The position numbers were made by a program, and so were the translations under genes. From Chloroflexota bacterium (lineage in GTDB: Bacteria > Chloroflexota > UBA11872 > VXOZ01), in the NCBI GenBank assembly GCA_964291655.2, contig OZ219802.1, positions 1,280,001-1,344,000 on the forward strand: a stretch of 64,000 nucleotides of DNA, in the 5' to 3' direction. A model generated the notes under the pieces. The model saw only the letters and a list, made by a program, of their open reading frames with translations. It did no database searches and was not told the DNA's origin. Shown here piece after piece: positions 8,687 through 49,419 of this stretch (positions are counted from its first letter, which is position 1; every line of letters starts with the position of its first letter).

Positions 8687-9979
8687 TCAGCCTTTCGGGT
8701 GCGCCGGCACCGCCCGGCTGCAGCGGCCTAGCTGTTCAATTGCGCTGTGCCGAATTATCGGCTCGGATTCCGCTGTTAGGGATGAGAGCGCCGGCTCCAT
8801 GCCGCCCTGGGCAAACGCGCCGGGCACCGGCACGTACCCAACCTCCCGGGAGGCACGGCTGAGTATGATCGTATGCGTGAATGGAGAAGCCTCCTGTATC
8901 GCGCCGACCGTCTCATGAAACATCTCGCCGGGCAGCGCAACCAGCGCAAGGGCATCGCCGAGCGTGACCACGCGTATTGGATAGACAATCGATGGATTCC
9001 GGTGGAATTGTTCAAAGAGGTACCGGCGGTAGCGAGCACGCGAGTTGCGTAATTCGGACCGCATTTCCTCCGGCTCTTCCGCCACCAGCCGCGCAGGCAC
9101 AGGCACTTCTCGGCTGTGGATTCTCAGCACCGGCGACTCTGTGGGCGTAATCTGCTCGAAGACGTAGAGTGCCTGGGCGCCGAGCGCGTGGCCGATGCGG
9201 CGGGCAGAATGGGCCCCATCCGCCTCAATCGGTATTTGTTCGCCGATACTGCCTTGCGTAAAGACGACGGGAATGCCCGCCACCTTGCGAAAGACCGCCG
9301 CCACGTGCTGGGGATAGTCTGCCGTAATGTGCCCATACCGGTCGTCAGAACAAAGCGCGTGGCAGCCGAAGTTCACGAGCGCCCCAAGCTGATTCCCAGT
9401 CACGGTATCAAAGCGCACAACCCGCACCGTATCGTCGATGCCTTGTTCGAGCCAGTCCGAGTCAGTTGGGATTGACGACTTCAACCCCACCATTTCCACG
9501 GAGCCGTCAGGCTTGATCCAACGGCGATTGCGGGTGAGTTCCGGCGCATGCCCGACCCCTGCGCTGACATGTACGGGAGTGAGGCTTTGCAATGCTTCAC
9601 GGATGCCAGCCGCAATGCGCTTAGCACACTCCGCTTCAAAGTCGTTGATGATGAGGTCCTGCGCAAAGACGATGATGTACGCGCCGTAATGCGAGATTGG
9701 CGACATGCCCACGTGCGACGGCGAGAACAACAGCGACCCGCTGCCTATTCCCGTACCCGCCAGGTGGGAGCACACGAGATCCTCGAAACCGCCGCCCAGC
9801 TCAAATACGTCAATCCCGCCCAGCACCGCCGTCCGGGTACCTTGCCGCAGCACGCAGAGGCGCGCCATGAGCGGATCGTGCACGGTAAAACTGCGCCGCC
9901 TCCGCCTACCGTTTTGCGTCGTCTCGACGGCGGGGGTTATGTCTACTTCGGCGAATGCGGCCAGCAGTGGCTCTGACAA
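8687..9979 (-). CDS. Neutral/alkaline ceramidase-like N-terminal domain hydrolase
   Basis: VDITP, VHDPLMAR, NRR, LVNFGCH, ITADYP and LPGEMF motifs. Confidence 0.7.
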   Translation of the reverse strand: MSEPLLAAFAEVDITPAVETTQNGRRRRRSFTVHDPLMARLCVLRQGTRTAVLGGIDVFELGGGFEDLVCSHLAGTGIGSGSLLFSPSHVGMSPISHYGAYIIVFAQDLIINDFEAECAKRIAAGIREALQSLTPVHVSAGVGHAPELTRNRRWIKPDGSVEMVGLKSSIPTDSDWLEQGIDDTVRVVRFDTVTGNQLGALVNFGCHALCSDDRYGHITADYPQHVAAVFRKVAGIPVVFTQGSIGEQIPIEADGAHSARRIGHALGAQALYVFEQITPTESPVLRIHSREVPVPARLVAEEPEEMRSELRNSRARYRRYLFEQFHRNPSIVYPIRVVTLGDALALVALPGEMFHETVGAIQEASPFTHTIILSRASREVGYVPVPGAFAQGGMEPALSSLTAESEPIIRHSAIEQLGRCSRAVPAHPKG

Positions 9980-10340
9980 ACTCGTGCTCCTCGAGCTCGG
10001 CGGGCAATTGTCAGGCGGGAAGGATGTGCGAAACAGGGCACACTCTCAACGATGGAGAGTCCCTGCAACTGCGTGAGCCACCATTGAGGCATCTCCCTGT
10101 GCAACGCGCTGACAGCTTCTCATGCGGGGCCTGGATCAAGCCTACCACGCGACTATTGTTCCTTCAATTGCACCCTGTAGGGCGCCGGGAACCTTGATTT
10201 GCCCCTAGTCAGAAAAGAAATTTCTTCACCGCGTCCGAACTGGAATCTGCCCGACAAGACCCGGACCGCAAGGTGGCGTTCTGACCCTGACACGAGTACG
10301 CTAAGGAAGTTACTGACACAACAGGATTGGGGGTGTTGCA

Positions 10341-11276
10341 TTGCCACAAGACTTTCTTGACCGCTTGCGGCGGGGACCGGTGCTTGGCGATGGCGGGTAC
10401 TTCTTGGAGCTTGAACGCCGCTGCCTTGGCAGTTACGGGGGAGGCGTGCCGCTGGCCGTGCTCGACCACCCCGACGGCGTCTTGGAACTTCATCGCGAGT
10501 TCGCCCGAGCGGGCGCGGAAGTCCTGCAGGCCATGGCGTGGGGCGTGGGCAGGATAGACCGCGAAGAGGAGTTGCACCGCACGGCCGTGGCGCTGGCGCG
10601 TGAAGCCGCCGGACCGGACCGCTACGTGGCCGGCACCCTGAGTCCCTATTTCGGCAAGCGCCGCCCGCAACTCTCTGCCGCCGACCGTCAGGAGGTTGCC
10701 GCTTTCTTCGATCGGCGCATCGGGCAACAGGTGTCGGCCGGTGTCGATCTCTTCATCGTTGAGACCTTCCACACGGTAGCTGAGGCAAGCGTTGCCATCC
10801 CTTTCATCAAGCAGGCCGGCATCCCCGCCGTCGTCACGCTCACGTACCAAGAGAACGACGTAACCCGCGACGGCCTCTCACCGGCGGAGGGAGCGCGCCA
10901 ACTCGTCGCTAACGGCGCCGACGTGGTGGGCATCAACTGTCACCGGCCGCCCCAGACCCTGCTCCCTCTGGCGCGCGAAGTGCGCCAGGCGGTGGATGTG
11001 CCCGTCTGCATACAGCCCACAGCCTACGAGCTGGAACCCGGCTCGGTGTATAACCGCGAGATCGTCGTGCCCGGCCTCTGGACAACCGTGGAACCACGCA
11101 TTCTTTCGCGGTTCGTCGCGGCAGAATACGCTAAGGAAGCGGCGGGGATCGGCATCGAATTCATCGGCGGCTGCTGCGGCATGCTCCCCTACCACATCCG
11201 TGCCATGGCCGACGCGCTGGGCAAACCCAGCACGCTCCCCGATAGACCGCGCGAGTATAGCGTCGACACCGCGTGA
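10341..11276 (+). CDS. Homocysteine S-methyltransferase family (BHMT-like)
   Basis: GDGGY, HREFARAGA, GINC and GGCCG zinc ligands. Confidence 0.9.
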   Translation: MPQDFLDRLRRGPVLGDGGYFLELERRCLGSYGGGVPLAVLDHPDGVLELHREFARAGAEVLQAMAWGVGRIDREEELHRTAVALAREAAGPDRYVAGTLSPYFGKRRPQLSAADRQEVAAFFDRRIGQQVSAGVDLFIVETFHTVAEASVAIPFIKQAGIPAVVTLTYQENDVTRDGLSPAEGARQLVANGADVVGINCHRPPQTLLPLAREVRQAVDVPVCIQPTAYELEPGSVYNREIVVPGLWTTVEPRILSRFVAAEYAKEAAGIGIEFIGGCCGMLPYHIRAMADALGKPSTLPDRPREYSVDTA

Positions 11277-28696: not shown

Positions 28697-30454
28697 TCAC
28701 CCTAACCCTCTCCCCCAGGAGAGGGAACCGGATCTGCTCAACGCGCTAGGCACTGAACTCCTCTCCAACACTCCAATGAGAGGGGACCGAATCTGCTCCT
28801 CGTACGCTTGGCTCCGCAATCTGCCCCCTCTCCCAGGAGAGGGAACCGGGCCTGCTCCGCATGCTCTTGGCTCCGTTTTCTGCACCCTCTCCCTGGGAGG
28901 CTGTCTCAATATTTTGGTGCGGGGCACGGTGAATGGGGTGAGAAGGACAGACAGATGGCGGGTGGTATGAACAAGACGGTGCCAGTGAGAGACTCGTCCC
29001 CGGGGCGACGCTGGACTACACCCAGACCGCCACAGGGCGTGGAGGCTCTTGAGATTGAACGCGGTGGCCAGCAGGTGCCATTCGGACGTCACGTGGCTGC
29101 GGCCTCTGAGCAGGAAGCGCCTGGCACTGTGCCACTCCTTGAGCAGGCCAAAGACCGGCTCGACGATGGTACTCCGGCGGCGGTACACCTGCTTGGCAGG
29201 CGCGGTGGCCATCAACTGCCTGTGCCGTTGCAGTATTGGCTCGTAGGCGCTGATCTTTATGGAGCGGCCCCTCTGGGAGGAGGTGCAGACGCCGAAGGCC
29301 GGACAGGTTCTGCAGTCCCGGCCGTTGGCTTGGTACCGCTTGACCCGGTAGCCGTTGCTGTGGGTCAAGCGGTGCGTGTAGGTGAGCACCTTTTGCTGGG
29401 GACACAGGTAGGTGTCGGTCTCTGGACGGTAGGTGAAGTGGTCTTTATGGTAGGGGTTGCGGCGTCTGCGCTCGTGGGTCGTGGGCATCAATACCGTGTG
29501 GCCGCCGGCGTGGCACGTGGCGAGGTTGGCCCCCGAATGGTAGCCGGCGTCCGCAACGGTCACCACGTCCCGCGCGGCGTCGATGTTCTCCTGCGCCGCC
29601 TCGATCAGCGGCGCCAGGTGGGGATGGTCGTCGGCACTGGCGCTCACGTCCACGGCTGTGATCAACCTCCCCCCTGCGCCCTCGTCCGGGGACGCAAGAG
29701 GGGAGACCAGCGCCTGGGCGTTGTAGCCGGTGATGAAGCCACCCATGCCAGTCTTGAGCAGGGCCGCGTCCGCATCAGTCAGGTTCGTGTAGCGCGGCCC
29801 GTCCTCAGCCGCGACGCGGGCGAGCGCGTCGTCCACCCGCCGCCGCAGGGCCTGGGCATCGGCAAGTTCCTGCGGCAAAGTCGCTGGCGGCGCGTCGCCC
29901 CCCGTGGCGTTCTGCGCCTCCAGGTCCGCGATCGCTTGCTCGGTGCGGGACAACAGCCGCTGCAGCCCCTGCGCGTCGTGGGTATGCCGCGTCCCGGCGT
30001 TGGCCGCGATCCTGGTGCCGTCCACCGCCTGGATTGCCAACTCCACCAGGCCGGCTCGCACCGCCGTGCGCACCGTGCGCTTGAGCAGCATCCGCATCCG
30101 GTCGCGGTGCGCCTTGTAGAAGCGCCACAGCGTGTTGTGGTCCGGCTGCTGCATCCCCACCAGCCACAGGTACGGTACCTGATCCCGGCAGGCTGCCTCC
30201 AGCTTGCGGCTCGAGCGCACGCCGGTCATGAAGCCGTAGACCCATACGCCCAGCAGCGCGCGCGGATGGTAGGCCCCGGCGCCACGCGGATCGCCTTGCA
30301 GGTCAATCTCCATCGCCTCCCAGGCCGCAGCATCGAGGCTGTCCACGAACGCTGCCGCAAACCTGACAGGATGGTCGTCCGGGATCAGTTCGTCCAGCGT
30401 CGGCGGCAACAGCCAGGCCTGTTCACGACTAAACGGTCTCAACGGCATCGTCAC
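28697..30454 (-). CDS. IS1182-family DDE transposase (ORF runs past the element end)
   Basis: REQAWLLPP..DHPVR (DUF772), PDHNTL, VDGT, GYNAQ, ADAGY, zinc finger, RSTIVEPVFG. Confidence 0.92.
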   Translation of the reverse strand: MTMPLRPFSREQAWLLPPTLDELIPDDHPVRFAAAFVDSLDAAAWEAMEIDLQGDPRGAGAYHPRALLGVWVYGFMTGVRSSRKLEAACRDQVPYLWLVGMQQPDHNTLWRFYKAHRDRMRMLLKRTVRTAVRAGLVELAIQAVDGTRIAANAGTRHTHDAQGLQRLLSRTEQAIADLEAQNATGGDAPPATLPQELADAQALRRRVDDALARVAAEDGPRYTNLTDADAALLKTGMGGFITGYNAQALVSPLASPDEGAGGRLITAVDVSASADDHPHLAPLIEAAQENIDAARDVVTVADAGYHSGANLATCHAGGHTVLMPTTHERRRRNPYHKDHFTYRPETDTYLCPQQKVLTYTHRLTHSNGYRVKRYQANGRDCRTCPAFGVCTSSQRGRSIKISAYEPILQRHRQLMATAPAKQVYRRRSTIVEPVFGLLKEWHSARRFLLRGRSHVTSEWHLLATAFNLKSLHALWRSGCSPASPRGRVSHWHRLVHTTRHLSVLLTPFTVPRTKILRQPPRERVQKTEPRACGAGPVPSPGRGGRLRSQAYEEQIRSPLIGVLERSSVPSALSRSGSLSWGRGLG

Positions 30455-35576: not shown

Positions 35577-35719
35577 CCCATCTGTACAATGGGTGAGTGC
35601 CTCGACTCCGGTTAGAGGGACCAATGAGGATGCTATTCTTACCCGCGTTTCGCATCCTGACCGGACGGCAGGCCACGGAAACCCGACAGGAAGCCATCGT
35701 TTCCGGCGAGGCAGGGAAG

Positions 35720-37078
35720 ATGTTGCGGCGAGTTGCGATTGTTGGCGGAGGTATTTCAGGTCTGGCCGCCGCCTGGGCGCTTAGTCATCACCCGGACCGC
35801 TTTGACTTCCGGCTGTACGAGGCGCAGGCCCAGATTGGCGGGAATGCGATTACGGCCGATATGCCGCAGGAAGACGGCTCCTCAATCCCTTTCGACATTT
35901 CCGTCACCGCCTGTATCCCGTCGGTCTACCATCACATTCTCTTGCTGATGGAGCAATTTGGCATTGATCTGATCGATACCAAGTTTAGCTACAGCGTGAA
36001 ATACCGCGGCCAAGTGTATGCCCACGACTTCGATTCCGAAATTAGAGAGCAACTGCGGTTCGAGATCCAGAAGTTCCAGCAACTCCTGCGGCGTCTCCAC
36101 TGGTTTGGCGGGCTGACTCGTTCCCAGTCGAAGCTGCTCAACGCTCTCAACCCCTTCAACTACCTAAGCATGGGGACGCTGCTGAATTGGGGAGCCTATT
36201 CCGGTGATTTCAGATTCAAGATTCTGAAGCCGATGTTCGTCAATTTTCTCATGGCGACGAACGTGTTCGATATGCCCGCGTCGCTCTTTGCGCGGTATCT
36301 TGAATTCTTCGACATCGAGAGCGCCACGCCGATGCAGACGTGGGACCAGGGAACGCGGCGTATCTACGAGAATCTATCGGCTGGTTTCCAAGACAAGATC
36401 TACCTCAGTAGGCCGGTACGCAAGGTGTGTCGACAGGAATCCCGCGTCGTGGTGGAGGACGAAGCCGGTGGCCGAGAGGTCTACGATGAAGTCATCTTCG
36501 CCTGCAACGCGAACCAGACGCTGATGATCCTCGACAAGCCCACGTTTCTGGAGCGGTATATTCTCTCTTCAATTCGCTACGAGAGCGAGCTGCACAACCA
36601 CACCGTCGTCCACTCGGATTCCTCAGTCTTGCCGGACAACGAGGTGAAGCCTCTGACAACCCGGAGCAATCACATCGAACAGTACGGCGCCAGGCCGGAC
36701 AACTATGAAATCACGTACATCATGCACAACCAGCAACCGTGGGCTAATCGCTCGGATAAGCCGTGCCTGGTGACGTATAACCCGATCAGTCCCATCGATG
36801 AGCGAAAGGTCGTGAAGAAGTGGTGGTTTCAGCACATCGTCCACGACGTGCGTCACGTCGCGTGGCTCGTGAACATCTTTCGCTTCATTCAGGGCAAGCG
36901 GCGGACGTGGCACTGCGGCGCGCACACCCTGGTCAACAGTCAAGAGACCTGCTTCGTGACCGGGCTCGCAGCGGCACGGCAGCTCGGTGCGAACTACCCC
37001 TTTGACAATCCCGGGGCAAGGCGCATGTTCAACTACTACGGCAGGATCATGTACGGTTGGCGCTTCAGGAAGGCGTAG
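35720..37078 (+). CDS. FAD-dependent oxidoreductase (COG2907/amine-oxidase-like)
   Basis: VAIVGGGISGLAAAW, YEA..IGG, YDEVIFAC, VHSD, QGKRRTWHCGAH, QETCFVTGL. Confidence 0.8.
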   Translation: MLRRVAIVGGGISGLAAAWALSHHPDRFDFRLYEAQAQIGGNAITADMPQEDGSSIPFDISVTACIPSVYHHILLLMEQFGIDLIDTKFSYSVKYRGQVYAHDFDSEIREQLRFEIQKFQQLLRRLHWFGGLTRSQSKLLNALNPFNYLSMGTLLNWGAYSGDFRFKILKPMFVNFLMATNVFDMPASLFARYLEFFDIESATPMQTWDQGTRRIYENLSAGFQDKIYLSRPVRKVCRQESRVVVEDEAGGREVYDEVIFACNANQTLMILDKPTFLERYILSSIRYESELHNHTVVHSDSSVLPDNEVKPLTTRSNHIEQYGARPDNYEITYIMHNQQPWANRSDKPCLVTYNPISPIDERKVVKKWWFQHIVHDVRHVAWLVNIFRFIQGKRRTWHCGAHTLVNSQETCFVTGLAAARQLGANYPFDNPGARRMFNYYGRIMYGWRFRKA

Positions 37079-37532: not shown

Positions 37533-38585
37533 TCAAGAAGTCGCGTTGCCGTTTTCGCTCACGTCGGAATAGAATTGGGCGCAGTAGCGACGGTACCTGG
37601 TGATCTCGCCGTCGGAACGGCAGAGGCGCGGGCGGGACTGATACCGTTTGCGGCTCCAAATGACCTCATCTTGCCGTACTTCCCATACTTGCTGCGACGC
37701 GGTAAACCAGTTCATGATTGGCGCGCGCATGCCCACCGGCAGAAATCCCAGGCCTGCGAGCCAGCGTTTCGGCTTGCGCAACTCCCGCACTTGCGAGGCC
37801 AGCGACATGTCGATGAACGTGCCGTCCACCGGTGTCGCCAGCACCCAGAGACGCATGTCCATACCGATCGAGTGTTCGCGAATGTCCACGAATGAGTAGC
37901 CAAGCCCGTGGACATGCGTGTCGGCGGTAAGATCAAACGTGAGTTTTGCGACTCTCGCAATCGAACGGGTGGACCTGAAGTTGAAACGGCTCCTCAGATA
38001 GGGACCGTCCACAGACACCGGCTCAATACGTTCCACCTTGCCAAAGCCGTGGATGTAGCGCAGGTGGGCCAGGTCCACCGCGTTTTCCGAAGTCTCCTGG
38101 GGATGGCCGGCAAAGCGCACCGTGCGGATCGCGAGATCGCACCAATCGTCATCGTCGGACGCAACCGCGGGTAGGTGCCATTGCGGCTCCCGATCTTGAA
38201 TGCCATACCACGCAAAGATCATGCCGACGATCTCCTGCGTCTCAAACACCCGCAGGACAGTGTGCCGTGGCGCCGGGGCATACGGCGTGGCCACGCACGT
38301 GCCGGTGGCATCGAACTCATAGCCGTGAAATGGACATACCAGCCGGCCATCACGCACGCGCCCCCCGGCAGCAGGGCTCAGGTCGGAGCCCAGGTGCGGG
38401 CAATAGGCCTCGGCAACGCAGATTTGGCCACTATCGTCGCAATACACGACGATGTTCTCACCCATCCAGGTCTTGTGGATGAGCTTTTCTTTCTCGATGT
38501 CCTTGCGGCTGGCGACGAAGTACCAACCCTCCGGAAATGGAGAAGGTATGGCAGCAGACACGAGCATGGGGGAGGAGGTTTGCAT
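37533..38585 (-). CDS. Rieske oxygenase, cholesterol 7-desaturase (Neverland/DAF-36)/KshA-like
   Basis: CPHLG...CPFHG Rieske cluster; ENAVDLAHLRYIH mononuclear Fe motif; DEVIWSRKRY..P.LC..DG.I..YRRYCAQFY tail. Confidence 0.85.
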   Translation of the reverse strand: MQTSSPMLVSAAIPSPFPEGWYFVASRKDIEKEKLIHKTWMGENIVVYCDDSGQICVAEAYCPHLGSDLSPAAGGRVRDGRLVCPFHGYEFDATGTCVATPYAPAPRHTVLRVFETQEIVGMIFAWYGIQDREPQWHLPAVASDDDDWCDLAIRTVRFAGHPQETSENAVDLAHLRYIHGFGKVERIEPVSVDGPYLRSRFNFRSTRSIARVAKLTFDLTADTHVHGLGYSFVDIREHSIGMDMRLWVLATPVDGTFIDMSLASQVRELRKPKRWLAGLGFLPVGMRAPIMNWFTASQQVWEVRQDEVIWSRKRYQSRPRLCRSDGEITRYRRYCAQFYSDVSENGNATS

Positions 38586-38615: not shown

Positions 38616-38655
38616 TTGACATGTGAGTGTCTGTCGGGTAGTGTACACTTATAAT
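38616..38655 (+). promoter_or_regulatory. Putative promoter in the divergent Rieske/P450 intergenic region
   Basis: TTGACA (38616)-17-TAGTGT (38639) overlapping AGTGTACACT, followed by TATAAT at 38650. Confidence 0.5.
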
Positions 38656-38826
38656 AACATATGTCGTGTACATCCCCTACTGCCGCTAGGTTTACTATTG
38701 CCAGCGACTACATTTCGCTTCCCAATTTTCGCCCTACCCATTGCCCGTGAAGCCGAGTCATCACTTTCCGGTGGTGCGATGCGCCAGGGCGATCTGGACC
38801 AATCCTGACCCCTGGAGGCAACGCAA

Positions 38827-40860
38827 GTGACAATCGCAACCGACCGTGTAACCACCCATGAGCTGACGTTGCCTCAAGAACTCGTCCTGATGCTCCTCAA
38901 TGAGGAGACCGGCTACTTTCGCCAAGTGGCCGGCTGGGACCTCAACTGCGCCATCATCGGCGGCGTATTAGCGGAACTCTCGCTGAGAGCCCGTATTGAC
39001 ACAGACATGGAGTCTCTCAAACTCCTGGATCCGACTCCGACGGACAATCCAGTCTTGGATCCAATTCTGGAAAAGATTGCCGAGGAACCGGAAGCACATA
39101 ACGTGCAGTATTGGATCGAGCGGCTTGTTTTTCGCGCCCCGGCAATCGTCGACCAGATCATGGAACGCTTGGTTGAGTTGAAGATTCTGGACTACCACGA
39201 CGGTGAATTCTGGACGCTGTCCCGGTCTTCGTGGCGGACGGAACTGTACACCGACTTCCGTGAAGTCACTGCGGCGGAGTTCGTCGAGACACGCGTGAGC
39301 CGGGCGATCTTCGATAATGAGATTCCCAGCCCACGGGATGTCATCATCATCGCCCTTCTCAATACGTGCGATGTCCTGCGCTTCATATTTCAACTCGAAG
39401 AGGCCTCAGAGGAGCGAATCCAGACTATCTGTAGGATGGAGTTGATTGGCCGGTCCATCGCGGATGCGGTAGCCAACAACTTTGCCGGAGGCATGCTCCG
39501 GCGCTCCGCCCTTGCCAAATCGATTCCGGTTGTCCCATTGCACAAGGTTTTGCTGAATCCGCATTTGCGCAGCGGCAACATTGCGGCGATCTTTGCGGAA
39601 TTTGGAAATGAGTACGGCCCGGTGTTTCAGTTGCGCCCGCCCTTTTCCGAGCCACTGTATTTCATAGGCGGGCCCCGCGTAAATCAATGGGTGCAACGAA
39701 ACGGGCGGCAGTACCTACGGGCGCGGGATTACTTTGCCGACTTCGAGAAAGTCTTCGGCGCGTCCGGGCTCATACCCGCGGTGGATGGGGCCGACCACTT
39801 CCGGCTGCGCAAGGCCATGTCACCGGGGTATTCACGCGAGAGATTGGAAGCGCAACTGGATGAGGTCTATGGCAACGCCCGCACGTATATGGCGGATTGG
39901 AAGGTCGGTGACTCTTACTCTGCGCGGTCGCTGTGCCGGCGGATGATCAATGCGCAAATTTCGCCGTTCACCGTCAGCATTGATTCACAAGACATCGTCG
40001 ACGATCTCATGGCATACAAAGAACGGGGCCTCTGCACACACGTCGCGCGGGTTCTACCCAAGTTCATGCTCTATACCCCCGGCATGAGACGCCGGGCGAA
40101 AATCGTCAATGAGGTGACGAACCGGGTCCAGCAAGTCCATACGCCCGCCCAGCGCGCGGGTCGTCCACGGGATCTTGCGGATGACCTTCTCAGCCTTCAG
40201 GCCAGCGACCCGCAGTTCCTGCCGGAGTCGAATATGCCGTTCATGCTCTCGGCGCCGCTGCTTGCCAGCATGTACTTGGGCGATGCGCTGAGCTTTGCGG
40301 TCTACGCCATGGCGGCGCAGCCCGAAATCTACGCACGGATACAGAAAGAAGCCGACGCCTTGTTTAGCGATGGCGATCCCCAGGGCAAAGACTTCACCCT
40401 AGAAGCACTGGACGTGACGCACCGCTTCATCATGGAGGTCATGCGCATGTACCCGGTCGTGCCCATGTCTATTCGCAACGTCATGAACGCCTGCGTGGTG
40501 GAAGGCTTTGAGTTGCCGGTGGGCGCGCGGATCCATATTGCTACGACCGCCTCACACTACATGGAGAAGGCCTTTCCCGAACCCTTCAAATTCGACATTG
40601 AACGCTATACGGCGCCGCGCTTTGAGCATCGCAGCCGGGCGTACGCCCCCTACGGCCTGGGTACGCACACTTGTCTCGGCACCCGGTTTATGGAGCGGCA
40701 ACTGACAATCAACCTACTCATGATCGCGCACTACTTCACGCTCGAGGTATCCCCCGATAAGTTCAAGCACAAGCTCACGTTCAGCCCGTTCCCGTCCAAC
40801 AAACCGAGCGGAAAGCTGAAGTTCGTCATTTCCGATCAGAGACGCGAGATAAACGTCTAA
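38827..40860 (+). CDS. GPP34 (GOLPH3/Vps74-like) domain fused to cytochrome P450
   Basis: N-term LTLPQELVLMLL..GGVLAELSLRARI; C-term EVMR (ExxR), PFKFDIERY, YGLGTHTCLG heme ligand. Confidence 0.85.
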   Translation: MTIATDRVTTHELTLPQELVLMLLNEETGYFRQVAGWDLNCAIIGGVLAELSLRARIDTDMESLKLLDPTPTDNPVLDPILEKIAEEPEAHNVQYWIERLVFRAPAIVDQIMERLVELKILDYHDGEFWTLSRSSWRTELYTDFREVTAAEFVETRVSRAIFDNEIPSPRDVIIIALLNTCDVLRFIFQLEEASEERIQTICRMELIGRSIADAVANNFAGGMLRRSALAKSIPVVPLHKVLLNPHLRSGNIAAIFAEFGNEYGPVFQLRPPFSEPLYFIGGPRVNQWVQRNGRQYLRARDYFADFEKVFGASGLIPAVDGADHFRLRKAMSPGYSRERLEAQLDEVYGNARTYMADWKVGDSYSARSLCRRMINAQISPFTVSIDSQDIVDDLMAYKERGLCTHVARVLPKFMLYTPGMRRRAKIVNEVTNRVQQVHTPAQRAGRPRDLADDLLSLQASDPQFLPESNMPFMLSAPLLASMYLGDALSFAVYAMAAQPEIYARIQKEADALFSDGDPQGKDFTLEALDVTHRFIMEVMRMYPVVPMSIRNVMNACVVEGFELPVGARIHIATTASHYMEKAFPEPFKFDIERYTAPRFEHRSRAYAPYGLGTHTCLGTRFMERQLTINLLMIAHYFTLEVSPDKFKHKLTFSPFPSNKPSGKLKFVISDQRREINV

Positions 40861-40899: not shown

Positions 40900-41937
40900 C
40901 TAAACGGGCTTAAGAGCCAGGAAACAATATAGCGGCGTGAAGATCCCGGTCTTGCCGCCCGCGACGTAGGCGTTGGCAGTCCGATCCAGCAGCTTGACGA
41001 CACGGGCGGAGCCCGATGGGAACACCCCCAGCACCTCGGCCAACCTGGATGCCCCGAAAACTGCCTTGCGGCCCAGCGGAAGCCTGATAAGGGCGTTGCC
41101 GAGCGTTCCGTGCCGGGTCTCCATGGGCCGATACCACGGCGTGGTCGGACCGTTCTCCCCAACAGCCCGATCCCTCCCTTCTATGACCTGAAAACCCGCC
41201 GTTTCGAGGTCGCGGTTTACCTCGTCCATCGTCGCTATTTCTTTGAGCGCGATCCCGTGCATCAGTTCTTTCTCAATAGCTCGATGTCGCTCGTCACCGG
41301 GATTGAACTTGCTCGTCATGCACATTTCCTGGCCCCAGAACAGGGCCCCGGGTTTCAGCACGCGGTAGATCTCGGCAAACGCGCCCGCCTTGTCCGGCGC
41401 ATGGCACGTCGATTCAATCGCGTACCCCCGGTCGAATGTGTCGTCCGCGATAGCGTCCATGTTCATGAAGCTACACGCGAGGTAGTCGATCGCATGGTCG
41501 AGTCCCGCCTCGGCGTCCAACGATCTCGCCTTGTCCAACTGGATTTCGTTGCTATTGACCCCGACTACCCTGACTCCGGCCTCCCGGACGACGCGGCGCA
41601 GCGGGCCGCCGACCCCGCAACCGACATCGATCACCGTCATGCCCTCGCGCAACTCCAACTTGGCGATCATCAGCCGCTGGTGACGGATCTTGGAGTCCTC
41701 CAGGCTTTCATGGGGCGACAGCGGTGCGAAGTGAAGGGACTCACCCCAACCGAACTCCATGAACTCGCCGCAGAGGTCGTAGTATTCCTTGACGGTTTCG
41801 GTGTGGTCGTAGCCCGTCGGGACGGCGTCCTCCACGTGTGCTTTGTCCATCCAGCCATCGAAGCGATTCACGCGACTGTGGACATCCGTTCCACGGTATT
41901 GAGCCTTCAGCCGGTTGGATAGTTTGCGGATTTGCAA
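40900..41937 (-). CDS. Sterol 24-C-methyltransferase-like (ERG6/SMT family)
   Basis: YYD..., MEFGWGESLHF, IDVGCGVGGP, YAIESTCHAP, IYRVLKPG, PWY, GGKTGIFTP. Confidence 0.88.
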   Translation of the reverse strand: MQIRKLSNRLKAQYRGTDVHSRVNRFDGWMDKAHVEDAVPTGYDHTETVKEYYDLCGEFMEFGWGESLHFAPLSPHESLEDSKIRHQRLMIAKLELREGMTVIDVGCGVGGPLRRVVREAGVRVVGVNSNEIQLDKARSLDAEAGLDHAIDYLACSFMNMDAIADDTFDRGYAIESTCHAPDKAGAFAEIYRVLKPGALFWGQEMCMTSKFNPGDERHRAIEKELMHGIALKEIATMDEVNRDLETAGFQVIEGRDRAVGENGPTTPWYRPMETRHGTLGNALIRLPLGRKAVFGASRLAEVLGVFPSGSARVVKLLDRTANAYVAGGKTGIFTPLYCFLALKPV

Positions 41938-41964: not shown

Positions 41965-44424
41965 CTACTCGTAGCGCCGCTGCACGGCCTCGATTTCCAG
42001 GTCCAACTCATCCGCCCAGCGCTTCACCTTGGATCGCAGCCGGACATTCTGGTAGGCGCCCCAGATTGTCATCGCAGGTGGAACCAGCAGAATGGACACT
42101 AACAGCGAGTAGAGGATCGTGATGGATGCCGCAATTGCGAACTGCTGGGAAGCAAGCAGGGGCGAGGCAATTAGCGCGCCAAGTCCGAGCGCCGTCGTGA
42201 GCGCGGAACCCAACAGCGCCGAACCGGTGGTGGCGAGTGTCCGAATTGCCGCTTGCTCCGGGTCCCGACCGCGGGCGTATTCCTCCCGGTAGCGATGAAT
42301 CACGTGGATGGTGTAGTCCACCCCGATACCTACCGAGAGCGCCGTGATGATAGACGTGACGAGCGAATAGGGAATATCCAGCAGCGCCATGGTGCCCAAC
42401 ACCGAGATGAGCACGAGCACAATCGGGCCCACCGCGATGACGGATAGCACCGGCTGGCGCACCGTGATCCAGAAGAAGAGCGCCAGCACGCCGAGGGCCA
42501 CCGCGATGGTGGTAGTAATCGCTTCTGTCTGCCGTTCAGTAATGGCGTCCGTGATTGTGATACCAATGATGCCCTCAGATGTTGCTGCGATAGCGTTGTC
42601 ATCACCGATCCAGAGGTCCTCCAGGGACTCTTGGATTTGCTTCGCCTGATTGGTATCGCCCGAGTAGGCCGGGAACTGGATCAGCATTGCGTCAGTGCCG
42701 GCCGGATCGTTAACCAGGAGATACGAAAGCGTCGGGTCCAGGGATTGGAGCCTGTTGAGGAATTCCTGCATCAACCCGGCATCAAGTCTCAGTCCCGCCG
42801 AGGCTTCTTGGAAAAGGGCGGCAAGTTCAGAATCGTATTTGTCGCCGGGCTGACCGCTGTCGTGTATCCAGTCTCGCACGAGGAGCTCATACGATGCCTG
42901 GATTGGTCCCGCCGCGGCGGCGGGACGGCTCTCTTCGTCCGCGAAGGCAGCGGTCAAGTCCCGCAGGTTCAACAGCGTGCGGGTCTCTGTGGCCTCCGCT
43001 CTGATGAGCACACTAACTATCTCCGTTGAGCCGCCAATTGCCGCATCAATGGTGTCCAAGTCCGCCATCAGGGTGCCCCCTCTGGGCAGAATGTCGCGGA
43101 TGTTGAACTCAGACTTGATCCCTGTGGCTGCGTACCCCAGCGCGAGCGTAACCCCAAGCACAACAATGAGGTACGGCGCAGGCGCGCGCGTGATACTTTT
43201 GCCCAGCACGGTCGCCAATCCCTCGATTCCGGGCAATGCCGTAGCTACCAAGCGAGGCTGCTTAAGATTGCCCCGGGCTTCCCGCTGCCGGTCGATGATC
43301 GTCCGGCCGGCCGGAAGCAGCGTAAGCATCACGATGAGAGTCATGCCCACACCCAGTCCTGCGATCAAACCGAAATCACCAATGATTCCTATAGGGGAAA
43401 ACAGACTCACCAGCAGGCTCACGATTGTCGTGACGGCGGCCAGTACCAGCGGAATGGTGACTTTGCGCAGTCCGATCTGGGCGGCCGGTACCACCGCCTC
43501 GCCTTCGTGACGCTGCTCCCGGTAGTGCGAGACGATCTGAATCGCGTAGTCGACCGTAAGGCTGATTACGATGATCGGCACCATCGCGGTAAGCTGGTTT
43601 GGCGGTCCGGTGATGCCCAGCGCGTAGGGACCCAGCCAGCCTTCCACACCAACGATCCACATCAGCGAAATAAACAGACCGGCCAGCGTGAGCAATAAAT
43701 CAGTCAACGTACGCAGGAAAAGCAGGATTAGCCCCGCGATGAGCAAGAGCGCCAGCCCGATCAACGGCCCCATGCCTTCTTGGGTAGCTTTCTTGTACTC
43801 GTCCTCGATTATCGCGGGTGAAACGCTGCTCACCTGCAGCGTACCCTCAGACGCGGCTGCAAGTTCGTCAATTTTGCGTTCAGCGTCGTCAATGCGCTCA
43901 TCACCCGTGTCCCGCAGACGAACAATGGCAATCGCCACCTCTGTACCATCCGTATCGGTGCCGGTCAGGGCGTCAAGCGCCGCCTGAATCTCGGGTGGGC
44001 CGCGGGCCGCGTTGATTTGCTCCTGTGTGATGGACGTGACGTTGTCCGTTTGGAGCACAGCCTTGATCAACAACACGGGCGCGACGAGGGGATTGACCGG
44101 CGCGAAGAGCTCCTGAACGGCAGGATCGGCGACGATCTCGTTGATCAGGGCATCCATCTGCGCCAGACCGTCAGGCGTCAGCGCGTCTCCACGGAAGATG
44201 AGCGTCACCACATTGGCTTCGCCGGATTCGCCAAAGAGCTCATCGATTTCAGCAATGGCGTCGGCAACGGTACTCCCTGGAGGAAGTATTGCCTCGTCTC
44301 CGGGAGGAGGCGCACGCCGTACCGCCCCGGCAGTCAGGAAAACGGTTATGTTCAGGATGACGAAAATCGTGATCCAAGGGCGGGCTGTAACAAAGCGGCT
44401 CAGCCTACCAAGTTGATTCTCCAT
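41965..44424 (-). CDS. MMPL/RND family lipid transporter
   Basis: Two 1+5 TM repeats; LTVDYAIQ..YRE and GIGVDYTIH..YREE motifs. Confidence 0.88.
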   Translation of the reverse strand: MENQLGRLSRFVTARPWITIFVILNITVFLTAGAVRRAPPPGDEAILPPGSTVADAIAEIDELFGESGEANVVTLIFRGDALTPDGLAQMDALINEIVADPAVQELFAPVNPLVAPVLLIKAVLQTDNVTSITQEQINAARGPPEIQAALDALTGTDTDGTEVAIAIVRLRDTGDERIDDAERKIDELAAASEGTLQVSSVSPAIIEDEYKKATQEGMGPLIGLALLLIAGLILLFLRTLTDLLLTLAGLFISLMWIVGVEGWLGPYALGITGPPNQLTAMVPIIVISLTVDYAIQIVSHYREQRHEGEAVVPAAQIGLRKVTIPLVLAAVTTIVSLLVSLFSPIGIIGDFGLIAGLGVGMTLIVMLTLLPAGRTIIDRQREARGNLKQPRLVATALPGIEGLATVLGKSITRAPAPYLIVVLGVTLALGYAATGIKSEFNIRDILPRGGTLMADLDTIDAAIGGSTEIVSVLIRAEATETRTLLNLRDLTAAFADEESRPAAAAGPIQASYELLVRDWIHDSGQPGDKYDSELAALFQEASAGLRLDAGLMQEFLNRLQSLDPTLSYLLVNDPAGTDAMLIQFPAYSGDTNQAKQIQESLEDLWIGDDNAIAATSEGIIGITITDAITERQTEAITTTIAVALGVLALFFWITVRQPVLSVIAVGPIVLVLISVLGTMALLDIPYSLVTSIITALSVGIGVDYTIHVIHRYREEYARGRDPEQAAIRTLATTGSALLGSALTTALGLGALIASPLLASQQFAIAASITILYSLLVSILLVPPAMTIWGAYQNVRLRSKVKRWADELDLEIEAVQRRYE

Positions 44425-44735: not shown

Positions 44736-45701
44736 CTAGTTGCGCTTGACGCGCTCGAAGTAGTTACATGCTATGACGTTGAGCGGCCCTAGGCGCTGCT
44801 CAACCTTATCGAGCAATAGGTTGAGACCCACATTATCGCACGCGCCATGGGGCATGCGCACCCAGCCCATACCGAGTTCTTCCGCTATCTTCTGGTGCTC
44901 AGGCGGGCAGCCAATGGTGACGAACGTGCCGACTCCGGCCTCCCTCAGCAGCGGGATCACCTCAAAGGGAAACATCCAACCACCGCCGTCCTGGTGGAAG
45001 ATCCGGCCCGCCGGCTGCTCGGCATCACCTGCCATAATGCGCGGGATCGCGCCAATGCGCGCCGCACCTTGGAACTCCGGGAGCGCCAGCAACGCCTGCA
45101 CCACGTCTCCCACCGTCTCCGCGTTCGCTGCCGCGATGGCGCCGCGCACACCCCGGCCGTGATGGAAGTCGGCGGGCGTATGGATGCACGCCAGCGGAAA
45201 CTCCAGCAGTTGCGCCATGTCGATGCCGTTGCGGTTGAAGTCCTCGGCGTAGTTCCAGCGGTCGGTCATCATGTCCGCGATGTGGGGCTCGGCGTCGGCC
45301 CGGGCAACACCCGCGCCTTCAAGCAGGTCCACGAGATAGGGCACTGTATCATAGATCAGCGTATCCGCCGGTACCCCGATGCCGTTGGTATGGTGGGAGA
45401 TGACGGCATCGATTCGCGTGCCGTTGGCGCGCAGATGGTCCGCCAGCAGAAGCTCCTGCGTGCCGATGTTTATGCCCATGAGGATGGTATCGAGTTCCGT
45501 GTCCTCCGGGCCGTTCACGATGCGCACGTCGCCGTAGGGATTGTTGAAGCGCTCCTGGTCGTAGTACGGCTTGCGCCAGTCCGCCAGCGCTGTATACTCC
45601 TGCCGTCGCCGTTCAAGCTGGCGGTCAAGGGCTTCACGCCCCCTAGGATCGACCTCACGGCCGATTTCGATGGAAGTTTCGTAGAGCTCGCGTAAGGTCA
45701 T
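44736..45701 (-). CDS. NIF3/DUF34-like protein (paralog 2)
   Basis: Same motifs as paralog 1; its start overlaps the paralog 3 stop (ATGA). Confidence 0.78.
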   Translation of the reverse strand: MTLRELYETSIEIGREVDPRGREALDRQLERRRQEYTALADWRKPYYDQERFNNPYGDVRIVNGPEDTELDTILMGINIGTQELLLADHLRANGTRIDAVISHHTNGIGVPADTLIYDTVPYLVDLLEGAGVARADAEPHIADMMTDRWNYAEDFNRNGIDMAQLLEFPLACIHTPADFHHGRGVRGAIAAANAETVGDVVQALLALPEFQGAARIGAIPRIMAGDAEQPAGRIFHQDGGGWMFPFEVIPLLREAGVGTFVTIGCPPEHQKIAEELGMGWVRMPHGACDNVGLNLLLDKVEQRLGPLNVIACNYFERVKRN

Positions 45702-46666
45702 CGCTCGTTACGCCTAATTCGCTCGAAGTAGTTGCACGGAATGACATTGAGCGGTCCCAAGCGGCGCTCTACCTCATCCAGCAGTAAATTGATGCCAATG
45801 TTGTCGCACGCCGCGTGGGCAATGCGCACAATCGCTACGCCCGCCCCCTGTGCCGCTAACGCTTGCGTCGGTGTGCACCCAATTTGCACCACGGTGTTCA
45901 CGCCTGCCTTGCCGAGCAGCGTGTACGCGTCCGGCGGCAAGCCGTACCCGCCGCCAAACTTGAGCAGCATGCGCCCGGCAGGCCATCTTGCTTCCCCACT
46001 CATCACACGCGGCTCAACGCCAATATGCGCCGCGCTCTGCACCTCCGGTATCACCATGAGCGCCCGCACCACGTCAGCAACGGTCTCGGGCCTTGCAGCT
46101 TCCACCACAGGCCGGACGCCTTCGCCAATGTAGTAATCTGCCGGCGTATGGATGCAGGCCAGCGGGAAGCCGAGCAACGCTGCCATGTCGGGGCCCATGC
46201 GTGCCGTATCTTCAAGCGCCTGCTCTTTTTCCTCGATGTAACGGTTGATGCACGCCTCGGCGTCTCCGCGCGGCACGCCTTCACCTGCCAGAAAATCTAT
46301 CGCTACCGGCATGAAGTCATGTACCAGCGAGATAGCGATGCCGATACCATTGGTATGGTGCGCGATTACGGCATCGATCTTGGTACCCTTGCTGCGCAGC
46401 CGGTCGGCCAGCAGGAGTTCGTCGAGGCCGATGTTGATGCCGAGCAGGACTGTCTGAAGCTCCACGTCCGCCGGGCCGTTGACGATACGCACGTCGCCAA
46501 AGGGATTGCGAAACCGCTCTTGATCGTAGAAGGGCTGCTCCCAATCGGGCAGGGCTGCGTATTCCGCCCGGCGCTGCTCGAGTTGCTGTTGAAGAGCTGC
46601 CTCTCCCCGCACGTCAAGCGCCATGCCGAGTTGTATTGAAGTCTCGTAGAGTTCTCGCAGTGTCAT
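45698..46666 (-). CDS. NIF3/DUF34-like protein (paralog 3)
   Basis: MTLRELYE, NPFGD, IAHH, CIHTPAD, HAACDNIGINLLLD. Confidence 0.78.
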   Translation of the reverse strand: MTLRELYETSIQLGMALDVRGEAALQQQLEQRRAEYAALPDWEQPFYDQERFRNPFGDVRIVNGPADVELQTVLLGINIGLDELLLADRLRSKGTKIDAVIAHHTNGIGIAISLVHDFMPVAIDFLAGEGVPRGDAEACINRYIEEKEQALEDTARMGPDMAALLGFPLACIHTPADYYIGEGVRPVVEAARPETVADVVRALMVIPEVQSAAHIGVEPRVMSGEARWPAGRMLLKFGGGYGLPPDAYTLLGKAGVNTVVQIGCTPTQALAAQGAGVAIVRIAHAACDNIGINLLLDEVERRLGPLNVIPCNYFERIRRNER

Positions 46667-46988
46667 GTTGGCACTCTTCGTTTCGCTAACTTGCACCTAT
46701 TGTAGCGCATTGGCAAACCGCAGCCGAAATCGAGGTGCGTAAAGCCCTTGGCAAGGTGAGCAAACAGCTTTCCACCTGGCATTTTGCTTGAGAGAGCACC
46801 CGCTCCACGCAGCCATGGCGGCTCAAGTTGCACACTACGAGCGGCCGGCAGTTGTGCGGTCAGTCCTCATACAGGCTAATGGGGGCAGCAAATCAGCATT
46901 TTGGCGCTCTCACCCGACAAATGCGGGCTCTATCGTTTAGAATTGCGTTGTAGCATGAATGCCGCATCAAACACAAGGATGTGACACG

Positions 46989-48228: not shown

Positions 48229-48390
48229 GGCACACTCTCTTGCCATGGGCCGCGCTTTGCGTTGCCCGGTACCGTTGCTTGGGCCGCCCCACGGAAACCG
48301 CCCGCCAAGACCAACGTACCCCGTCTGTAGTCGATGAGCGACCCGCGCTATACTGTAGAGAAACTTTCTCTCGCCCTCGAGGAGCATGTC

Positions 48391-49419
48391 GTGAGCAAGC
48401 AAACAGTGCTGCCGCCGTTGCAGTCCGAAGAACAACTCATGGCGCAGATGACCGCGCCCACGCCGGAAGTGTGTACAGCGGTGCAGGCGCTGGACGGCGA
48501 CATCATGGTGCTGGGTGTGGCGGGCAAGATGGGCCCTACGCTCGCGGAGCTATTGGTGCACGCGGGGGCCAAGCGCGTGATCGGCGTTTCGCGCTTTTCC
48601 TCTCCGGACTCGCGCCGTTACTTGGATAGCGTCGGCGTGGAGACGGTGGCCTGCGACTTGCTGGACGACGCAAGCGTGGCCAAGCTGCCGGATGCGCCGT
48701 ATCTTTACTTGCTGGCGGGGTTCAAGTTCGGCTCCAGCGGCGCGCCTTCCCTGAACTGGGCCATGAATACGCTCGTGCCGGCCAAGCTCATGGAGCGCTT
48801 TCCCAATTCCCGCATGGTCTACGTGTCTTCCGGCAACGTCTACCGCTTCATGCCGGTGGACGGCGGTGGCGCTGATGAAGACGCGCCCCTGGGGCCGGTG
48901 GGTGAATACGCCGAATCCCGCCTGGGCGGCGAGCGCCTGGTGGAATACTACGCAGAAAAGAACAGCACCCCTACCCTCATCGTGCGGCTCTTCTACGCCA
49001 CGGAACTGCGCTACGGCATCATCCTGGATATCGCTACCAAGGTGAATGACCGGACGCCAATCGACCTATCTATGGGCTACGTAAATCAGATTTGGCAGGG
49101 CGACGCCTGCGACATGCTCGCCCGCTCGTTCCCGCTCTGCGCAAGTCCTGCTGACGTGATTAATCTGACCGGCACGGAAACCCTTTCCGTGCAAGCGGTG
49201 GCTGAGGCTTTGGGTGAACGGCTCGGTGTCGCGCCGATCTTCACCGGGAAGCCGGAGGCTACGGCGCTACTGGGCGATGCGACGCGCTACGTGGAGACCT
49301 TCGGCGCGCCCCGCGTACCGGCGGAACAGATTATCGACTGGGTTGCCACGTGGGTCAAGCACGAAGGCGCGACGCTGGGCAAGCCGACGAAATACGAGAG
49401 CAGGACGGGGGATTTCTAA
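48391..49419 (+). CDS. NAD-dependent epimerase/dehydratase
   Basis: GVAGKMG, SSGNVY, YAESR. Confidence 0.85.
   Translation: MSKQTVLPPLQSEEQLMAQMTAPTPEVCTAVQALDGDIMVLGVAGKMGPTLAELLVHAGAKRVIGVSRFSSPDSRRYLDSVGVETVACDLLDDASVAKLPDAPYLYLLAGFKFGSSGAPSLNWAMNTLVPAKLMERFPNSRMVYVSSGNVYRFMPVDGGGADEDAPLGPVGEYAESRLGGERLVEYYAEKNSTPTLIVRLFYATELRYGIILDIATKVNDRTPIDLSMGYVNQIWQGDACDMLARSFPLCASPADVINLTGTETLSVQAVAEALGERLGVAPIFTGKPEATALLGDATRYVETFGAPRVPAEQIIDWVATWVKHEGATLGKPTKYESRTGDF

Follow-up and report, generated by a model that had tools for sequence, protein, structure and literature searches.

A GPP34–cytochrome P450 fusion with a remodelled I-helix and its putative sterol-tailoring partners in a Chloroflexota genome

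The gene considered here lies at positions 38827..40860 (+ strand) of a 64,000-nucleotide stretch of contig OZ219802.1 from a Chloroflexota bacterium. This whole stretch is called the window. The gene encodes a 677-residue protein in which a domain of the GPP34 family, that of the eukaryotic Golgi adaptors GOLPH3 and Vps74, is followed by a cytochrome P450 with an altered oxygen-activation site. Linkage of such fusions to a recurrent set of partner genes tracks the clade in which the I-helix is shortened by one residue and reads AS-x-Y-L-G-D; fusions with a canonical AG-x-D-T I-helix generally lack these partners. On balance, we think it probable that the protein is a cytoplasmic P450 that tailors imported sterol, with the GPP34 domain as its dock at the membrane. 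The evidence is as follows.

The reading frame is the sole long one at its position, with a GTG start codon and a GGAGG motif 8 nt upstream of it. A Pfam scan places GPP34 (PF05719) at residues 15–216 (38869..39474, + strand), covering profile positions 1–199 of 201 (E 6.3e-28; 98.6 bits, cut-off 29.1), and p450 (PF00067) at residues 245–665 (39559..40821, + strand; E 4.4e-37; 128.4 bits, cut-off 22.8). Both assignments agree with profile searches of the PDB. The fusion, which an earlier note had read from the letters of this DNA, is thus confirmed, and the 120 best homologues (644–697 residues, 64–100% identity) all carry both domains. NCBIfam models give only weak, sub-threshold matches to the fusion, such as 67 bits for pentalenene oxygenase, where the cut-off is 800. 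Complex prediction of the GPP34 domain against the P450 domain returned a score of 0.00 and no verdict, its output listing no interface or contacts. At least one relative, P0132 (872 residues), has an N-terminus about 200 residues longer than that of the usual 675-residue protein; its match to the window protein begins at its residue 219.

The architecture itself is already in print. A 2025 study of sponge symbionts (Microbiome 2025;13:4, PMC11706023) describes, in its accessible text, a "GPP34_L" type consisting of GPP34 plus PF00067, which accounts for 656 of 663 long GPP34 proteins, and proposes for it PI4P (phosphatidylinositol 4-phosphate) binding and interference with phagocytosis. The window protein belongs to this published family.

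The N-terminal domain is predicted to fold like GOLPH3 and Vps74. Searched as a single sequence against the PDB, it gives marginal matches to these proteins (E 0.07–0.19). A profile built from 31 such domains has GOLPH3/Vps74 as its sole matches, at E 8e-8 to 2e-7, and the matches span almost all of the domain. Residues 1–240 were also modelled with AF2 (pLDDT 81.1, pTM 0.80); the Foldseek matches of this model at E ≤ 0.001 are GOLPH3 or Vps74 chains in eight of eight cases, with TM scores to GOLPH3 of 0.64–0.69. The confinement of both the profile and the structural matches to these two proteins is the ground for the fold assignment, and it upholds the earlier reading of about 220 GPP34-like N-terminal residues. 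The model includes a β-hairpin at residues 121–131 (strands 121–124 and 128–131). No signal-like segment is visible by eye at the N-terminus, whose residues form the first helix of the GPP34 domain in the model.

Ligand binding is another matter. According to the accessible text of Wood et al. 2009 (PMC2806290), the PI4P pocket of GOLPH3 is formed by W81, R90, R171 and R174, and the double substitutions W81A/R90A and R171A/R174A abolish binding. In alignments at ~18–20% identity, R90 aligns to I44 of the fusion protein, R171 to P105 (E in most homologues) and R174 to V108 (I or V across the family), and W37 lies at, or no more than 2 residues from, the position of W81. As it stands, the basic pocket appears to be gone, although the mapping is uncertain at such low identity. 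The analogy with PI4P binding drawn in the earlier note is weakened accordingly: the GOLPH3 fold is there, and the three pocket arginines are not conserved.

A stand-alone GPP34 protein is encoded elsewhere in the same genome, outside the window (G000:C2:518789-519379, or L086:8742-9401, − strand; 219 residues, 156 bits). Neutral/alkaline-ceramidase-like genes lie to either side of its gene (L086:7075-8481 and 9585-11069). Judged from these predicted functions, GPP34 is paired with lipid enzymes here for a second time.

The C-terminal part of the fusion is an intact haem-thiolate P450 of CYP51-like ancestry with a remodelled oxygen-activation site. The residues of the ExxR motif (E537 and R540), of the PERF-like motif DIERY (R593) and of the haem ligand (C616) are invariant in 32 close and 43 distant homologues, in keeping with the complete P450 that had been read from the sequence. 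C616 lies in the haem-thiolate loop, Y-G-L-G-T-H-T-C-L-G, at residues 609–618 (40651..40680, + strand). Among solved structures, a profile search ranks first the P450 domain of a CYP51-ferredoxin fusion (6mi0/6mcw; E 2.2e-25), which is also among the top Foldseek matches, with a TM to target of 0.79–0.80. The ESM Atlas places the domain in generic "cytochrome P450" clusters only.

The oxygen-activation site of the I-helix, A-S-M-Y-L-G-D, spans residues 480–486 (40264..40284, + strand), within the segment APLLASMYLGDALS (residues 476–489) quoted by the earlier note. The acid-alcohol pair, (A/G)-G-x-(D/E)-(T/S), is typical of monooxygenase P450s and is not needed for membership of the family. 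It is absent from the fusion P450, as that note had claimed, and three kinds of alignment bear this out. A hidden Markov model (HMM) profile alignment with solved CYP51 puts A-S-v-Y-L-G opposite A-G-H-H-T-S; BLASTP with the CYP51-like P450 of a related cluster puts A480-S-M-Y-L-G485 opposite A-G-Q-H-T-S; and MAFFT with distant fusions leaves a one-residue gap opposite AG-x-[DE]-T, the motif of related fusions. As judged from 32 close homologues, the clade shows no variation at Y483 and D486, and at least 90% of its members keep L484 and G485.

How widespread is the deletion? An exhaustive search yielded 360 cluster representatives at E ≤ 1e-30, which include many end-to-end fusions at 26–41% identity and unfused P450s at ~30%. 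When 43 of these representatives are aligned, the I-helix site reads [DE]-T in 27, H-T in three and D-[I/P/Q] in four, and the remaining nine have the one-residue gap; six of these nine carry the Tyr. The two types differ in their surroundings. From 80 metagenome loci fetched with a canonical-fusion profile, 8 were dropped as wrong-frame or partial. The partner genes described below are present in 5/6 deletion-type loci versus 2/66 canonical-type loci (p = 8.8e-6), and the sixth deletion-type locus, which lacks them, is only 3.3 kb long. When loci with at least 3 kb of flank are considered, the counts are 4/4 versus 1/46 (p = 2.2e-5). These counts overstate independence, because some contigs recur in several assemblies.

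Canonical fusions adjoin MFS/TRI12-like transporters in 4/7 annotated loci; therefore, both I-helix groups pair the GPP34-P450 with a membrane transporter. At one locus (L104:2351-15193), the genes flanking a canonical-type fusion encode an ecdysteroid-kinase-like (EcKL) protein, an MFS transporter, a pair of sulfatases and a large protein with ankyrin repeats. Some 7 kb from this fusion lies a methyltransferase that shares 78% identity with that of the window and is unmatched by Sterol_MT_C at E ≤ 1e-6.

In the window, four partner genes surround the fusion. Divergent from it is a KshA-like Rieske oxygenase gene (37533..38585, − strand), the product of which matches Pfam Rieske and KshA_C and has KshA as its best PDB match (E 1.3e-29). 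Further upstream is a gene for a flavin adenine dinucleotide (FAD)-dependent flavoprotein of the amine-oxidase family (35597..37078, + strand), assigned by Pfam and resembling LkcE (PDB E 1.6e-27) and fatty-acid isomerase (PAI; 2b9w, E 2e-11), with a weak match to the NCBIfam model for HpnE. Convergent with the fusion is a sterol methyltransferase (SMT) gene (40900..41937, − strand), identified by Pfam Sterol_MT_C. Next comes a gene for an RND pump of the MMPL/HAE3 type (41965..44424, − strand), which matches Pfam MMPL, Sterol-sensing and Patched and NCBIfam HAE3 and HpnN. The SMT and the Rieske oxygenase are the only matches in the genome to Sterol_MT_C and KshA_C, respectively.

The partners recur well beyond the window. 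At least 147 stretches in a species-representative genome collection encode a relative of the fusion. The 80 of these 147 matches that were kept, all titled as metagenome-assembled genomes (MAGs), were surveyed over ±10 kb, and a partner was scored as present when tblastn matched it at E ≤ 1e-10 over at least half of the query length. The Rieske oxygenase is the most constant partner (64/80 loci), followed by the flavoprotein (44/80; median identity 81%), the SMT (44/80) and the RND/MMPL pump (37/80). Eight of the 80 loci have the P450 without partners, some of them on short contigs. Gene order and orientation vary widely between loci, and the remaining genes of the window recur in only 0–4 close relatives.

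By NCBI label, the 80 loci include 40 from Chloroflexota, 10 from Gemmatimonadota, 8 from Pseudomonadota, 6 from Latescibacterota, 3 from Nitrospirota and 2 each from Binatota, Thermodesulfobacteriota and Rhodothermota, i.e., eight labelled phyla in all, with 4 unknown. P450 identity within the clade is 60–90% across phyla. A FastTree tree of 78 rows (unrooted, with submitters' MAG labels; L011, L027 and L062 were dropped because their frames fall below 600 residues) requires 11 changes of phylum label, where the minimum is 7 and the mean of shuffled labels is 31.4. Free mixing of the gene among phyla is rejected on account of this difference, which points to few transfers between phyla, followed by vertical descent within them.

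Five loci from Dehalococcoidia-titled MAGs (L011, L023, L027, L040 and L062) have partial fusion, pump or Rieske matches, frames shorter than 600 residues, or a stop codon in the N-domain. These partial copies may represent a decaying module or assembly errors. A further GPP34-P450 paralogue, with A-L-D-P in the I-helix and 28% identity to the protein of the window, is found at L036:7773-9797 and L012:4987-7008. It stands in tandem with the deletion-type gene and, in L036, directly upstream of genes for ERG24, a CYP51-like P450 and an SMO-OSC.

Where would the sterol come from? The source genome (3.47 Mb in two contigs, 97.55% complete) has no match to the cyclase domains PF13243 and PF13249 or to squalene epoxidase (PF08491). 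It encodes two P450s, and the one besides the fusion resembles the CYP184, CYP4, CYP97 and CYP102 types rather than CYP51. The marks of a de novo sterol cluster, namely an oxidosqualene cyclase (OSC), a squalene epoxidase and a CYP51, are thus lacking. Because they are, we infer an external source for the sterol substrate, most plausibly a host. Two tandem genes of the ERG4/ERG24 reductase family (402 and 388 residues) lie ~210 kb upstream of the window among solute-binding-protein genes (G000:C2:1069601-1071849, or L173:9452-11853).

Other carriers of the fusion were surveyed for cyclases in 34 chromosome-level genomes. Strong matches to the cyclase C-domain occur in 15 of them, in frames of 631–758 residues; 17 have no match and 2 have weak matches only. 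Both of the short frames inspected contain the DxDDTA motif of squalene-hopene cyclase (SHC). Two of the 15 genomes also have cyclase frames of ~1,200 residues, which are squalene-epoxidase-cyclase fusions by Pfam (SMO-OSC) and contain the OSC motif V-x-DCTAE in the form V-T-DCTAE. In both of these OSC-bearing carriers (2/34), the GPP34-P450 gene is ~2–11 kb away, near genes for a CYP51-like P450, ERG24, SdmA/SdmB-like proteins and SMT. In a Nitrospirales MAG, the order is GPP34-P450, SMT, KshA-like Rieske, outer-membrane barrel, flavoprotein, second SMT, SdmB-like, SdmA-like, ERG24, CYP51-like P450 and SMO-OSC. This order matches the cluster gene numbering in Supplementary Data 1 of Brown et al. 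(PMC10070321), which names homologues of known sterol genes only. In a Thermodesulfobacteriota MAG, two GPP34-P450 paralogues lie directly upstream of ERG24, CYP51-like P450 and SMO-OSC. Members of the ERG4/ERG24 family are present in 21/34 carriers (19/32 of those without OSC) versus 0/14 control genomes.

The link to sterols suggested by the earlier note is therefore supported, and on stronger grounds, i.e., linkage across phyla to SMT, KshA-like Rieske and RND/MMPL pump genes, together with adjacency to OSC, CYP51, ERG24 and SdmAB genes. Several specific identities were considered and rejected. The fusion is not the cluster's CYP51 (14α-demethylase), since a separate CYP51-like P450 with the AGQHTS signature, absent from the fusion, coexists with it in the OSC-bearing clusters; the two are 23% identical over 235 residues. 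The Rieske neighbour in the window is not SdmA, scoring 42.4 bits on NCBIfam NF052579 against a cut-off of 600; SdmA-like genes (Rieske+VanA_C) occur as separate genes in the full sterol clusters. An epimerase-family gene of the window (48334-49419) is not SdmB-like: BLASTP finds no similarity (E 1.5), and the gene is kept in 4 close loci only.

We propose that the five genes, i.e., those for the P450, the KshA-like Rieske oxygenase, the LkcE/PAI-like flavoprotein, the SMT and the RND/MMPL pump, form a set that would have moved between phyla and that most likely oxidises, methylates and moves sterols. The oxidation carried out by the P450 would be a tailoring step coupled to methylation of the side chain, and it would dispense with the normal proton relay. 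Proton delivery, if needed, could possibly proceed via other groups, such as Y483, D486 or the substrate. Desaturation at C-22 or elsewhere in the side chain is one candidate reaction, and we regard it as rather unlikely. The GPP34 domain would hold the enzyme at the membrane surface or hand over a membrane lipid; by analogy, it may stand in for the membrane anchor that eukaryotic P450s carry in the corresponding position. A role for GPP34 as an accessory of lipid oxygenases would fit the occurrence of GPP34+Rieske fusions, rare examples of which are reported in the accessible text of PMC11706023.

Several points weigh against this proposal. The sterol role of the GPP34-P450 family is a prediction from sequence and gene context. 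At ~125 bits, the ERG4/ERG24 homologues of the source genome are divergent, and other lipids could be their substrates. The module contains no ferredoxin or reductase gene, and the small open reading frames (ORFs) around it match neither ferredoxin nor any other Pfam family. The mapping of the PI4P pocket relies on alignments at ~18–20% identity, and the N-terminus was inspected for a secretion signal by eye alone. Loci are not independent of each other, as some contigs recur in several assemblies. Finally, the Rieske partner resembles KshA, a catabolic enzyme; the pump is HpnN-like and 15/34 carriers have an SHC, so that a hopanoid-like substrate is possible in those genomes.

The last two points are the starting points of two other explanations, to each of which we give little credence. 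One is catabolism of sterols: host sterol would serve as a carbon source, its breakdown would be started by the P450 together with the KshA-like Rieske oxygenase, and the pump would import it. CYP125 and KshA act in this way in actinobacterial cholesterol degradation. The catabolic explanation draws on the Rieske partner, which carries KshA_C and has 3-ketosteroid 9α-hydroxylase as its best solved relative, and on a source genome that cannot make sterols; yet SMT, an anabolic tailoring enzyme, travels with the fusion in 44/80 loci, the fusion lies inside or beside a biosynthetic cluster in 2/2 OSC-bearing carriers, and the module has no ring-cleavage or β-oxidation genes, for which no genome-wide search was made. 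The other explanation is that the P450, the methyltransferase and the pump act on the same non-sterol lipid, such as a hopanoid, another triterpenoid, a sponge-derived terpenoid or a long-chain lipid. The SHC-type cyclases of 15/34 carriers, with DxDDTA in the two inspected, the HpnN-type pump and the weak HpnE match of the flavoprotein would all suit it. The source genome and 17/34 other carriers, however, have no cyclase match, and 2 more have a weak one only; the methyltransferase carries Sterol_MT_C; the fusion adjoins OSC, CYP51 and ERG24 wherever an OSC exists; and ERG4/ERG24-family genes are found in 21/34 carriers. In addition, related symbiont SMTs, which may or may not be of the type found in the fusion module, methylated desmosterol in vitro, according to the accessible text of PMC10070321.

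Less probable still is the role proposed in the accessible part of PMC11706023, that of a host-directed effector whose GPP34 domain binds host PI4P and diverts phagosome maturation, with the P450 assisting somehow. The GOLPH3 fold of the N-domain, the long GPP34 form being reported there in sponge symbionts only, and the ankyrin-repeat genes near one canonical-type fusion are what speak for such an effector. An effector of this kind is hard to reconcile with I44, P105/E and V108 at the positions of the three arginines needed for PI4P binding (Wood et al. 2009), with the need of a P450 for haem and a cytoplasmic electron supply, with an N-terminus that shows no signal-like segment by eye and folds into the first GPP34 helix, or with the tight linkage to sterol enzymes and a lipid pump.

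The sterol-tailoring proposal can be extended, although the extended version strikes us as distinctly unlikely. Here, the deletion-type GPP34-P450 and its partners would be a transferable kit, with which symbionts that do not synthesize sterols rebuild the side chains of host sterols, using a P450 without a normal proton relay and GPP34 as a lipid-presenting or membrane-docking module. The P450 might, e.g., be a desaturase that makes the double bond needed by the methyltransferase, or might rearrange an oxygenated sterol. If this were so, host and bacteria would jointly make part of the unusual sterols of sponges, among them the alkylated ones that serve as markers of early animals in the fossil record, and the GOLPH3 family would have begun as an accessory of membrane-lipid enzymes.

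A few further features of the window remain to be described. In the divergent intergenic region between the Rieske and P450 genes, there is a perfect 10-bp palindrome, AGTGTACACT, at 38640-38649. A second GTGTACA follows 26 nt downstream of it, and the two enclose an A+T-rich stretch, TATAATAACATAT; the whole element spans 38640-38672. The palindrome and the second GTGTACA may be a candidate operator. Consensus scans found no terminator after the fusion gene and no promoter in this intergenic region, with counts no higher than the shuffle level. Directly downstream of the pump gene are two overlapping ORFs (44736-46696, − strand; 321 and 332 residues), which have no Pfam or NCBIfam match and are kept in 2 close relatives only. 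For six neighbouring ORFs, Pfam gives nothing above cut-off, even when E-values up to 0.1 are allowed. A DDE transposase gene (DDE_Tnp_1_6, DUF772; 28697-30454, − strand) lies ~5 kb upstream of the flavoprotein gene and is absent from all 80 related loci.

In the literature searched, we found no mention of the sterol-module context, of a clade with the I-helix deletion or of a lost PI4P pocket. The word "sterol" is absent from the text of PMC11706023. The main text of PMC10070321 contains neither "cytochrome" nor "Rieske", and three of its supplements contain none of P450, Golgi, Rieske and GPP34. The papers found to name both GPP34 and sterol do not concern bacterial sterol genes, as judged by their titles and abstract openings, and no link of GPP34 or GOLPH3 with bacterial sterol genes was found in a search that left subscription journals outside its reach.

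If the sterol-tailoring proposal is true, it provides a testable function both for bacterial GPP34 domains and for a P450 family whose sole published role, as an effector, is speculative. Close relatives of the fusion occur in at least 147 species-level genomes, and sterol synthesis is possible in only 2 of the 34 examined. Thus, if the module remodels imported sterols, cyclase counts underestimate the bacteria that shape sterol pools. The proposal would also bear on the debate over the makers of the side-chain-alkylated sterols of sponges (PMC10070321). As for mechanism, the clade offers a natural case in which to study how a P450 that lacks the acid-alcohol pair and one residue of the I-helix activates oxygen without the usual proton relay.

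It remains to set the fusion beside the systems it most resembles. With the eukaryotic PI4P-binding Golgi adaptors GOLPH3 and Vps74 (PDB 3kn1 and 2zih), it has in common the predicted fold, the Pfam family, the β3/β4 hairpin and a tryptophan at or near W81; it differs in that R90, R171 and R174 appear not to be conserved and in having its GPP34 domain joined to an enzyme. The CYP51 of the CYP51-ferredoxin fusion (6mi0, 6mcw, 7snm) is a sterol-binding P450 and the best relative by profile, although identity is only ~20%, and its A-G-x-H-T-S I-helix is replaced in the fusion P450.

CYP61 and CYP710 are sterol C-22 desaturases that act on 24-alkylated sterol side chains and have I-helixes of the ASQDA type, without the threonine. 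When this motif is set beside that of the fusion, both lack the threonine, and the pairing with an SMT would fit a C-22 step; the desaturases, however, keep an acid (Q-D-A), whereas the fusion has Y-L there, with one residue fewer and no acid. No CYP61 or CYP710 structure is among the PDB matches listed for the fusion.

The GPP34_L proteins of sponge symbionts have a two-domain architecture identical to that of the window protein. The accessible text of PMC11706023 groups them by Pfam architecture alone, whereas the present analysis splits them into canonical and deletion types, of which the latter alone is sterol-linked. Lastly, the sponge-symbiont sterol clusters with SMTs, as described in the accessible text of Brown et al. 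2023 (PMC10070321), come from the same habitat and share the SMT family, and in two genomes the fusion abuts such a cluster. Those clusters are de novo pathways, with SMO-OSC, ERG11, ERG24, sdmA and sdmB; in contrast, the fusion module is mostly OSC-free (32/34 carriers).

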